Shown: positions 18,560 through 19,053 of the stretch, one piece after another
Layout: each line of letters begins with the position of its first letter
How positions within the stretch are numbered: the first letter of the stretch is position 1
NCBI RefSeq assembly: GCF_055900595.2
Contig: NZ_CM148325.1
Direction: 5' to 3' (one strand)
Length of the DNA stretch: 64,000 nt
Program-made: the position numbers and the translations under genes
The notes under the pieces: model-generated
Database searches by the model: none
What the model was told of the DNA's origin: nothing
What the model saw: only the letters and a program-made list of their open reading frames with translations

Positions 18560-19053
18560 ATCAGATATTCACGGTGATTTTGCTCGTGTTGGTAGGATTT
18601 GTCGTAGGTAATGTCTGGAGCGACAGAGGATGGCAAAAAAAATGGGCGGAGCGTGATGCTGCCGAATTATCTCAAGAGGTAAATGTCCAATTTGCTGCTC
18701 GAATAATTGAACAGGGGCGAACTATATCCCGTGATGAGGCTGTTAAAGATGCACAACAGAAAGCCGCTGAAATTTCTGCCAGGGCTGCTGATCTGTCTGA
18801 TAGTGTTAACCAGCTGCGTGCCGAAGCAACAAAATATGCCATACGCCTTGACGCAGCGCAGCATACCGCAAATCTTGCCGCTGCCGTCAGAGGCAAAACA
18901 ACCAAAGCCGCCGAAGGAATGCTCACCAACATGCTCGGAGATATTGCAGCAGAAGCTCAGCTTTATGCTGAAATTGCTGACAAACGCTACATCGCAGGAG
19001 TGACTTGTCAACGGATTTATGAATCTTTAAGAGATAAAAAATATCAGATGTAG
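18556..19053 (+). CDS. Rz-like inner-membrane spanin
   Basis: N-terminal TM helix then coiled-coil; start overlaps the endolysin stop. Confidence 0.8.
18734..19003 (+). CDS. Rz1-like outer-membrane lipoprotein spanin embedded in Rz (+1 frame)
   Basis: Lipobox LTSC after a signal peptide; proline-rich; fully inside the Rz gene. Confidence 0.6.

Follow-up and report, generated by a model that had tools for sequence, protein, structure and literature searches.

A probable RzoQ-type o-spanin gene embedded in the +1 frame of an Rz-like gene in a prophage lysis cassette

In phage lambda, the Rz1 gene starts 220 nucleotides (nt) into the Rz gene and is read in its +1 frame, and its end lies 59 nt 5' of the Rz stop codon. 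The same architecture is found in the 64,000-nt stretch of contig NZ_CM148325.1 (assembly GCF_055900595.2) that is called the window. In this window, a lambdoid prophage very probably has its o-spanin gene at 18749..19003 on the + strand, inside the i-spanin gene 18556..19053 and in its +1 frame; the i-spanin gene is the last of a holin, endolysin and spanin cassette. The two proteins are referred to below as Rz1 (o-spanin) and Rz (i-spanin).

The closest described counterpart is found in Escherichia coli K-12, where RzoQ (b4689, "putative lipoprotein RzoQ", 255 nt) lies within rzpQ (b1553) of the cryptic prophage Qin and forms the same gene pair. Like the 255-nt gene of the window, K-12 rzoQ begins 193 nt into rzpQ, is read in the +1 frame and stops 50 nt short of the Rz stop codon. 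The window and K-12 proteins are 95% identical for Rz1, with 4 amino acid differences (H2R, K5N, P6L and Q28K), and 90% identical for Rz, with 16 differences. The embedded spanin arrangement is already known, and the gene of the window is a near-identical copy of one that is annotated in K-12.

A more distant homologous pair is carried by phage N15, namely gp55 (DUF2514) and its embedded o-spanin, with 56% identity for Rz and about 57% for Rz1. The N15 o-spanin likewise has 84 amino acids (aa), Cys23 and a CxPxC motif, and is embedded in the +1 frame after holin and lysozyme genes. The lipobox is LVSC in N15 and LTSC in the window, and N15 Rz has about 16 extra N-terminal residues with basic ones before the anchor. 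When 18556..18620 of the window is set against 1405..1500 of the N15 locus (L011), Rz of the Qin and 2H10 type is seen to be without these residues of the N15 type (..PSPLIAAIKAWWKP..). In the spanin census of Kongari et al. 2018, N15 is listed as singleton embedded i-spanin and o-spanin families (PMC6139136).

On sequence, the window pair can be assigned to this N15/RzpQ (RzoQ) family, which consists of a PHROG 11621 o-spanin with a DUF2514 / PHROG 312 partner. The embedded protein matches PHROG 11621 "Rz-like spanin" with E = 2.1e-8, while the enclosing protein matches Pfam DUF2514 (1.9e-38) and PHROG 312 "Rz-like spanin" (3e-58). Together with the K-12 identity, these matches bear out the embedded spanin arrangement that had been put forward in the original prediction. 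Phage 2H10, deposited as a phage genome of 46 kb, encodes both proteins with 100% identity to those of the window, and the 1.1 kb around the pair is 99.8% identical to this phage. A counterpart of the Rz gene is present in 2,122 of 5,426 complete E. coli genomes and is named rzpQ in the records listed.

Position and start of the embedded gene

The open reading frame (ORF) list of the window gives a + strand ORF at 18707..19003 with a TTG start and 98 aa, and an enclosing Rz-like ORF at 18556..19053, also on the + strand, with a GTG start and 165 aa. The offset between the two is 151 nt and, as 151 mod 3 = 1, the embedded ORF is in the +1 frame of the Rz gene. It stops 50 nt 5' of the Rz stop codon and lies fully inside Rz, which agrees with the original prediction of an embedded +1 gene at 18707-19003 in all but the start, most likely to be at 18749. 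TTG 18707 is merely the first start-type codon of the embedded ORF. It was ruled out as a start, its Cys being residue 37 and the codon not being conserved; a PROSITE PS51257-style rule with Cys at position 15-35 was used as the criterion for a lipoprotein signal.

Two ATG codons further downstream pass this rule. ATG 18734 gives a protein of 89 aa with Cys28; it is missing from many homologues and is a possible additional start of the o-spanin gene. ATG 18749 gives 84 aa with Cys23, forms the invariant first column of the homologue alignment and agrees with the annotated start of E. coli K-12 rzoQ. In addition, a GAGG-N9-ATG spacing at this start was found in 19 of the 22 related loci described below. 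From the GAGG spacing, the invariant start column and the K-12 annotation, the gene is best placed at 18749 to 19003, and it likely encodes 84 aa with Cys23 as the lipid-modified residue. Translation of Rz1 would be expected to rely on internal initiation on the late mRNA at its own GAGG-N9-ATG site. The features concerned are the following.

18556..19053, + strand: i-spanin gene, Rz-like, RzpQ homologue, 165 aa (DUF2514, PHROG 312, 90% identity to K-12 RzpQ)
18736..18739, + strand: Shine-Dalgarno-like GAGG, 9 nt 5' of ATG 18749, inside the conserved Rz codons for ..DEAV..
18749..19003, + strand: predicted o-spanin gene (Rz1 analogue, RzoQ homologue), 84 aa, +1 frame (PHROG 11621, 22 related loci)

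Conservation and double coding in the overlap

By tblastn, the small protein was found in 29 phage records and the Rz protein in 40. The comparison covered 22 related loci, namely the K-12 locus and 21 phage loci in which Rz identity ranges from 100% to about 30%. They include 2H10, Tritos, SW-37, N15, Fraca, Skarpretter, Lumpael, KLER1-1, HeidiAbel and Taid, and the phage hosts are Escherichia, Salmonella, Klebsiella, Citrobacter, Enterobacter, Kosakonia, Pectobacterium and Pararheinheimera, with one unverified Stutzerimonas record. Conservation of the frame in related phages, on which the first reading had been staked, was observed throughout: an intact +1 lipoprotein ORF is present at the homologous position in 22 of 22 loci and sits inside an intact Rz in 21 of them. 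In Salmonella phage SW-37 (locus L006, ~700..1250), Rz is frameshifted in the N-terminal anchor region and the Rz1 ORF is intact, a frameshift that reflects either a sequencing error or a defective i-spanin.

The related o-spanins mostly have 84 aa with Cys at residue 23. Nine residues (L20, C23, L45, P46, Q51, C58, P60, C62 and L66) are invariant in 19 Rz1 sequences, and all of them are present in the window protein. The signal peptides diverge in sequence while hydrophobicity and the terminal lipobox are kept throughout, which argues for selection on the protein and not on the nucleotides.

An ORF of this kind could also be a non-coding shadow of the composition of Rz, with a lipobox that is there by coincidence. 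The frequency of such an event was estimated from 20,000 synonymous-codon shuffles of the Rz gene in which protein and codon usage were kept. Of the shuffled genes, 2.6% contained a +1 ORF of 84 codons or more, a frequency that leaves some room for a shadow ORF; the share was 0.8% for 98 codons or more and 0.4% for a +1 ORF bearing a lipoprotein-like signal. The single sequence alone is suggestive, and it is the comparative evidence that decides on the reality of the embedded gene.

Frame openness in the homologues did not discriminate between the two explanations. Two antisense frames are largely stop-free too, staying open for about 100 codons in most homologues of this Ala/Gln-rich gene, so that openness alone is weak evidence. 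The +2 frame, on the other hand, is interrupted by 3-11 stops in the same stretch. Two antisense ORFs exist in the window opposite the Rz/Rz1 overlap. They were rejected as genes, having no significant family match, and are interpreted as shadow ORFs arising from an Ala-rich region that codes in two frames.

18667..19011, - strand: antisense ORF, 114 aa
18672..18932, - strand: antisense ORF, 86 aa

The variability of the Rz codons was followed along a codon alignment of 12 non-redundant Rz genes. At third codon positions, entropy is 1.17 in the segment 5' of the overlap and 1.39 in the segment 3' of it, and it falls to 0.60 inside the overlap and to 0.51 over the part that encodes mature Rz1. 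In parallel, the observed over expected fraction of synonymous differences was calculated for sequence pairs 75-99.9% identical, as given below; these pairs are phylogenetically non-independent, so the ratios are descriptive only.

Upstream of the overlap: +1 frame ratio 0.68, Rz frame ratio 2.67
Rz1 signal peptide: +1 frame ratio 1.03, Rz frame ratio 1.66
Rz1 mature part: +1 frame ratio 1.37, Rz frame ratio 1.53
Downstream of the overlap: +1 frame ratio 0.80, Rz frame ratio 2.86

The contrast between inside and outside is clear, and the dual-coding constraint is confined to the overlap. When the window is compared with K-12, 5 changes are counted over the mature Rz1 region, 4 of which alter Rz and leave the Rz1 protein as it is. 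A test of synonymous enrichment on the antisense frames was also tried; mild enrichment was seen there too, because wobble positions are shared with the sense frames, and this test was replaced by the comparison inside and outside the overlap.

A further point in favour of a shadow ORF is that the embedded gene is left unannotated in most phage and RefSeq records. In the 29 full-length E. coli RefSeq matches listed (of 2,122 genomes), only rzpQ and the lysozyme are named, and most phage records inspected carry the DUF2514/Rz gene only and omit the embedded o-spanin. The records of phages Eeyore (L012, 919..1188) and Sortsne (L018, 934..1149) contain the small ORF only, as "Rz-like spanin", and miss the enclosing i-spanin. 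Among the records examined, both genes are annotated only in K-12 MG1655 and in phage KLER1-1, whose record labels the homologous pair i-spanin and o-spanin. Set against this, the start, the GAGG spacing, the hydrophobic lipobox signal and the nine invariant residues are all kept down to about 30% Rz identity, and both the +1 synonymous enrichment and the low third-position variability of Rz are seen only inside the overlap. Taken with the stops of the +2 frame and the antisense ORFs without family match, they make a shadow ORF extremely unlikely, and a real embedded o-spanin gene is the preferred reading. The practical value of the finding is one of annotation, as most records carrying the embedded o-spanin omit it. 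Once the pair is recognised, the prophage lysis cassette is completed and the "DUF2514" gene is given a role.

Features of the two proteins

The Rz1 protein starts with a predicted lipoprotein signal peptide made of a positively charged n-region, a hydrophobic h-region and the lipobox LTSC at 18806..18817, where the Cys23 codon occupies 18815..18817. Read from ATG 18749, it obeys the PS51257-style rule, which agrees with the signal peptide with lipobox LTSC that had been described from the first inspection. An o-spanin is recognised by a signal peptidase II signal with a lipobox and an acylatable Cys, and by its embedding in an i-spanin gene within a lysis cassette; both are found here. In the Lol pathway, lipoproteins without Asp at position +2 are sorted to the outer membrane. 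Residue +2 after Cys23 is Val in Rz1, and Asp at this position is found in no homologue, which implies that Rz1 would be sorted to the outer membrane.

18749..18817, + strand: predicted lipoprotein signal peptide, with n-region MHNRKPLK, hydrophobic h-region and lipobox LTSC (PS51257-style rule)
18818..18931, + strand: proline-rich stretch predicted to be disordered, residues 24-61, with 9 Pro, L45, P46, Q51 and the start of C58-x-P60-x-C62 (AlphaFold)
18920..18934, + strand: CxPxC motif (C58, P60, C62) with candidate disulfide cysteines, invariant in 19 sequences down to 27% identity
18932..18994, + strand: predicted C-terminal helix, residues 62-82 (AlphaFold)
19006..19008, + strand: codon of the single invariant periplasmic Cys of Rz (C151), invariant in 18 sequences and located just 3' of the Rz1 stop codon

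Mature Rz1 comprises 62 aa from Cys23 and contains 9 Pro (15%). All 9 fall within its first 38 residues, of which they make up 24%, and the last 22 contain no Pro. The description of the mature region as proline-rich thus applies to its first ~38 residues and does not extend to the C-terminal 21 residues, which are a confidently predicted helix. In the AlphaFold model built from the family alignment, no regular secondary structure is predicted up to about residue 61, with predicted local distance difference test (pLDDT) scores mostly of 50-75, while the means of 10-residue blocks over residues 61-80 reach a pLDDT of 92-93. Some embedded o-spanins in the spanin census, e.g. that of HK97, are substantially helical (PMC6139136), so the C-terminal helix of Rz1 is not unusual.

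In the enclosing Rz protein, residues 4-21 form a hydrophobic N-terminal anchor and the remainder a periplasmic helical domain. The AlphaFold model (mean pLDDT 72) consists of a helix at residues 2-114, a low-confidence linker at 115-119 and a second helix at 120-164. This predicted layout matches the plan of helix, linker and helix given for i-spanins in the census (PMC6139136). An i-spanin is recognised by an N-terminal transmembrane anchor with a helical periplasmic domain, and the model of the Rz-like partner has both. Taken together, the structure predictions fit an i-spanin with two long helices and a linker and an o-spanin that is largely a disordered tether. PDB sequence searches with both family profiles found no solved structure for the Rz or the Rz1 family.

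The same DNA is read in both frames, and the compositions of Rz and Rz1 are therefore coupled. The Ala-rich stretch of Rz is the Pro-rich stretch of Rz1 in the +1 frame, which means that Ala-rich Rz codons are read as the Pro-rich tether of Rz1, and the DNA of the Rz1 C-terminal helix also encodes the start of the second Rz helix. Periplasmic cysteines are present and invariant in both proteins (C58 and C62 in Rz1, C151 in Rz) and probably form Dsb-dependent disulfides, by analogy with lambda Rz/Rz1. The invariance and the structure prediction permit a tentative and rather doubtful reading, in which o-spanins of the RzoQ/N15 type would have a structured distal module, absent from lambda Rz1, made of CxPxC and the amphipathic helix 62-82. 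This module might dock as a helix bundle on the second Rz helix, with a disulfide to Rz C151 that would lock or regulate the complex. If true, spanin assembly would follow a variant mechanism in this family, which has no homology to the studied models.

Lysis cassette, spanin function and comparison with lambda

The lysis cassette of the window is complete and contains a P21-type holin, a lysozyme and then Rz/Rz1, with the spanin gene last. The lysozyme stop codon overlaps the Rz GTG start in the sequence GTGA at 18556..18559. The genes upstream of the spanin pair are as follows.

16933..17148, + strand: holin of P21 S-type, EssQ homologue, 71 aa, with the possible dual-start motif MKSM (Pfam PF04971, 8.9e-34)
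17132..17704: YdfR/DUF1327-like ORF, 190 aa, full-length match to PHROG 2091
17652..17912, - strand: convergent ORF of 86 aa, PHROG 2572, of unknown function
18026..18559, + strand: endolysin, phage lysozyme, RrrQ homologue (PF00959, 2.6e-24; rrrQ/lysozyme in RefSeq)

The holin belongs to the pinholin family PF04971. Its mechanical ORF begins at 16849, and the real gene probably begins at 16933; a 216-nt essQ is annotated in a 100%-identical RefSeq record and in K-12. The MKSM start is a possible dual-start (antiholin/holin) motif, and a terminator-like hairpin with a T-run is located at 16811..16832, about 100 nt 5' of the holin start at 16933. The lysozyme has an Ala/Ser-rich, weakly hydrophobic N-terminus and an E35-x8-D44-x5-T50 spacing, and its sequence suggests a signal-anchor-release (SAR) type or a secreted endolysin paired with the pinholin.

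The neighbours of the pair in K-12 Qin are those of the window, namely the essQ holin, a ydfR-like gene, the rrrQ lysozyme and, downstream, cspI. The window differs from Qin by a longer YdfR-like ORF and the reverse 86-aa ORF, and by a prophage that is seemingly complete and not cryptic. The extra DNA between holin and lysozyme amounts to about 0.5 kb when compared with K-12 Qin; it is placed at 17132..17912 and is extra with respect to phage Tritos as well. The YdfR-like and the minus-strand 86-aa ORFs that it holds overlap at their 3' ends, and the former is labelled "YdfR family, incomplete" in RefSeq for an identical strain, yet its PHROG match covers the full length. This extra DNA looks like a mosaic variant or a moron and not like a broken gene. 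Downstream of the Rz stop codon, an AT-rich spacer of ~360 nt is followed by a cspI-like cold-shock gene at 19414..19629 (PF00313), a layout also present in Qin and in phages 2H10 and Tritos. Directly 5' of the lysis cassette, 14663..16742 holds two cargo-like genes. One encodes a YbgA-like protein (2-thiouracil desulfurase domain and DUF1722), intact here and frameshifted in strain CFSAN061763, and the other an AraC-family regulator (16020..16742). A CI-like repressor, terminase gpA and large ORFs of structural size are found in the wider window, which looks like it holds a complete lambdoid prophage.

We infer the spanin function of the pair, with lipid modification, Rz-Rz1 interaction and disruption of the outer membrane, by analogy. 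In the model taken from lambda Rz/Rz1 (PMC6139136, PMC5295617), Rz1 would be acylated and sent to the outer membrane while Rz would be anchored in the inner membrane. The two proteins would bind via their C-terminal (distal) parts to form a complex that spans the periplasm, threaded through the peptidoglycan. With the holin triggered and the peptidoglycan removed by the lysozyme, the complexes would be free to rearrange and would fuse the inner and outer membranes, by which the outer membrane would be destroyed and lysis completed.

Prophages also encode lipoproteins with other roles, such as Cor, Llp and Bor. Rz1 might, like them, be a real outer-membrane lipoprotein with a role outside lysis, e.g. 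superinfection exclusion or serum resistance. Such a role would agree with the sequence of the embedded protein, which is unrelated to that of lambda Rz1, and with the literature, in which no experiment linking the RzoQ/DUF2514 family to lysis was found. The persistence of the gene in the cryptic Qin prophage and in the E. coli genomes counted above could also hint at a benefit for the host, but it is equally true of the whole essQ-rrrQ-rzpQ cassette. Moreover, phages of several genera, both temperate and virulent, always have the gene inside an Rz-like gene that comes right after the endolysin. Its architecture, frame and relative position are those of lambda Rz/Rz1, and a promoter scan detected no promoter-like site inside Rz. 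A role outside lysis is hence very unlikely.

With about the same small probability, the pair may be a genuine spanin pair that is inactive or decaying in the window prophage, as in Qin-like remnants. The closest bacterial counterpart does belong to a cryptic prophage, the N-terminus of Rz is shortened relative to N15-type relatives, and the neighbouring YdfR-like gene carries the "incomplete" label. Nevertheless, both ORFs are intact with proteins identical to those of phage 2H10, the prophage is seemingly complete and every invariant residue of both families is present. The reading of the pair as the spanin genes of the lambdoid prophage is therefore retained.

Several observations count against this reading. 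The literature search retrieved no functional study on RzoQ, RzpQ or DUF2514, its hits being mostly random string matches. The embedded protein has no match in Pfam or NCBIfam, which hold no model for it, and is recognised by PHROGs alone. Rz has a shorter N-terminus than its N15-type relatives and no basic residue before the anchor. To these are added the open antisense frames and the dependence between the sequence pairs mentioned above. Finally, neither protein is homologous in sequence to its counterpart in lambda, whose pair has been characterised by experiment: the comparison of Rz1 with lambda Rz1 gives a BLASTP E of 1.0 and 29% in hhalign, over the lipobox region only, and that of Rz with lambda Rz gives a BLASTP E of 1.4 and an hhalign probability of 0.4%. 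Window Rz1 does not match PF06085 up to E 1 (2.9e-20 for lambda Rz1 as positive control), and the enclosing gene does not match PF03245 "Phage_lysis" (2.6e-54 for the lambda Rz control). The lambda Rz1 family (PF06085 "Lipoprotein Rz1 precursor") was rejected for the embedded protein, which finds no support for it in BLASTP, hhalign or Pfam.

What is shared with lambda is found at another level. In both systems, the o-spanin gene is placed in the second half of the i-spanin gene, after the endolysin. Both combine a type II anchor and helical periplasmic domains in Rz, a lipobox followed by a residue other than Asp at +2 and a Pro-rich tether in Rz1, and periplasmic Cys (PMC6139136). The differences lie in the o-spanin itself. 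Mature Rz1 has 62 aa in the window and 41 aa in lambda, where 10 Pro were counted in the 41 residues by the same method. Unlike lambda Rz1, window Rz1 has no penta-proline run and has a C-terminal helix that is predicted with confidence; its periplasmic Cys are two in number, against the single Cys29 of lambda Rz1 (PMC6139136). As to the original prediction, its comparison with lambda Rz/Rz1 holds for the embedded +1 architecture and fails for the sequence of either protein. Likewise, judged from the sequences, "Rz1-type" is a correct term for the architecture and the inferred function, that is for the class of embedded spanins, and not for a sequence family. The locus is another case of a well-described arrangement, with the embedded +1 architecture preserved in a family of spanins whose sequences are unrelated to those of lambda.

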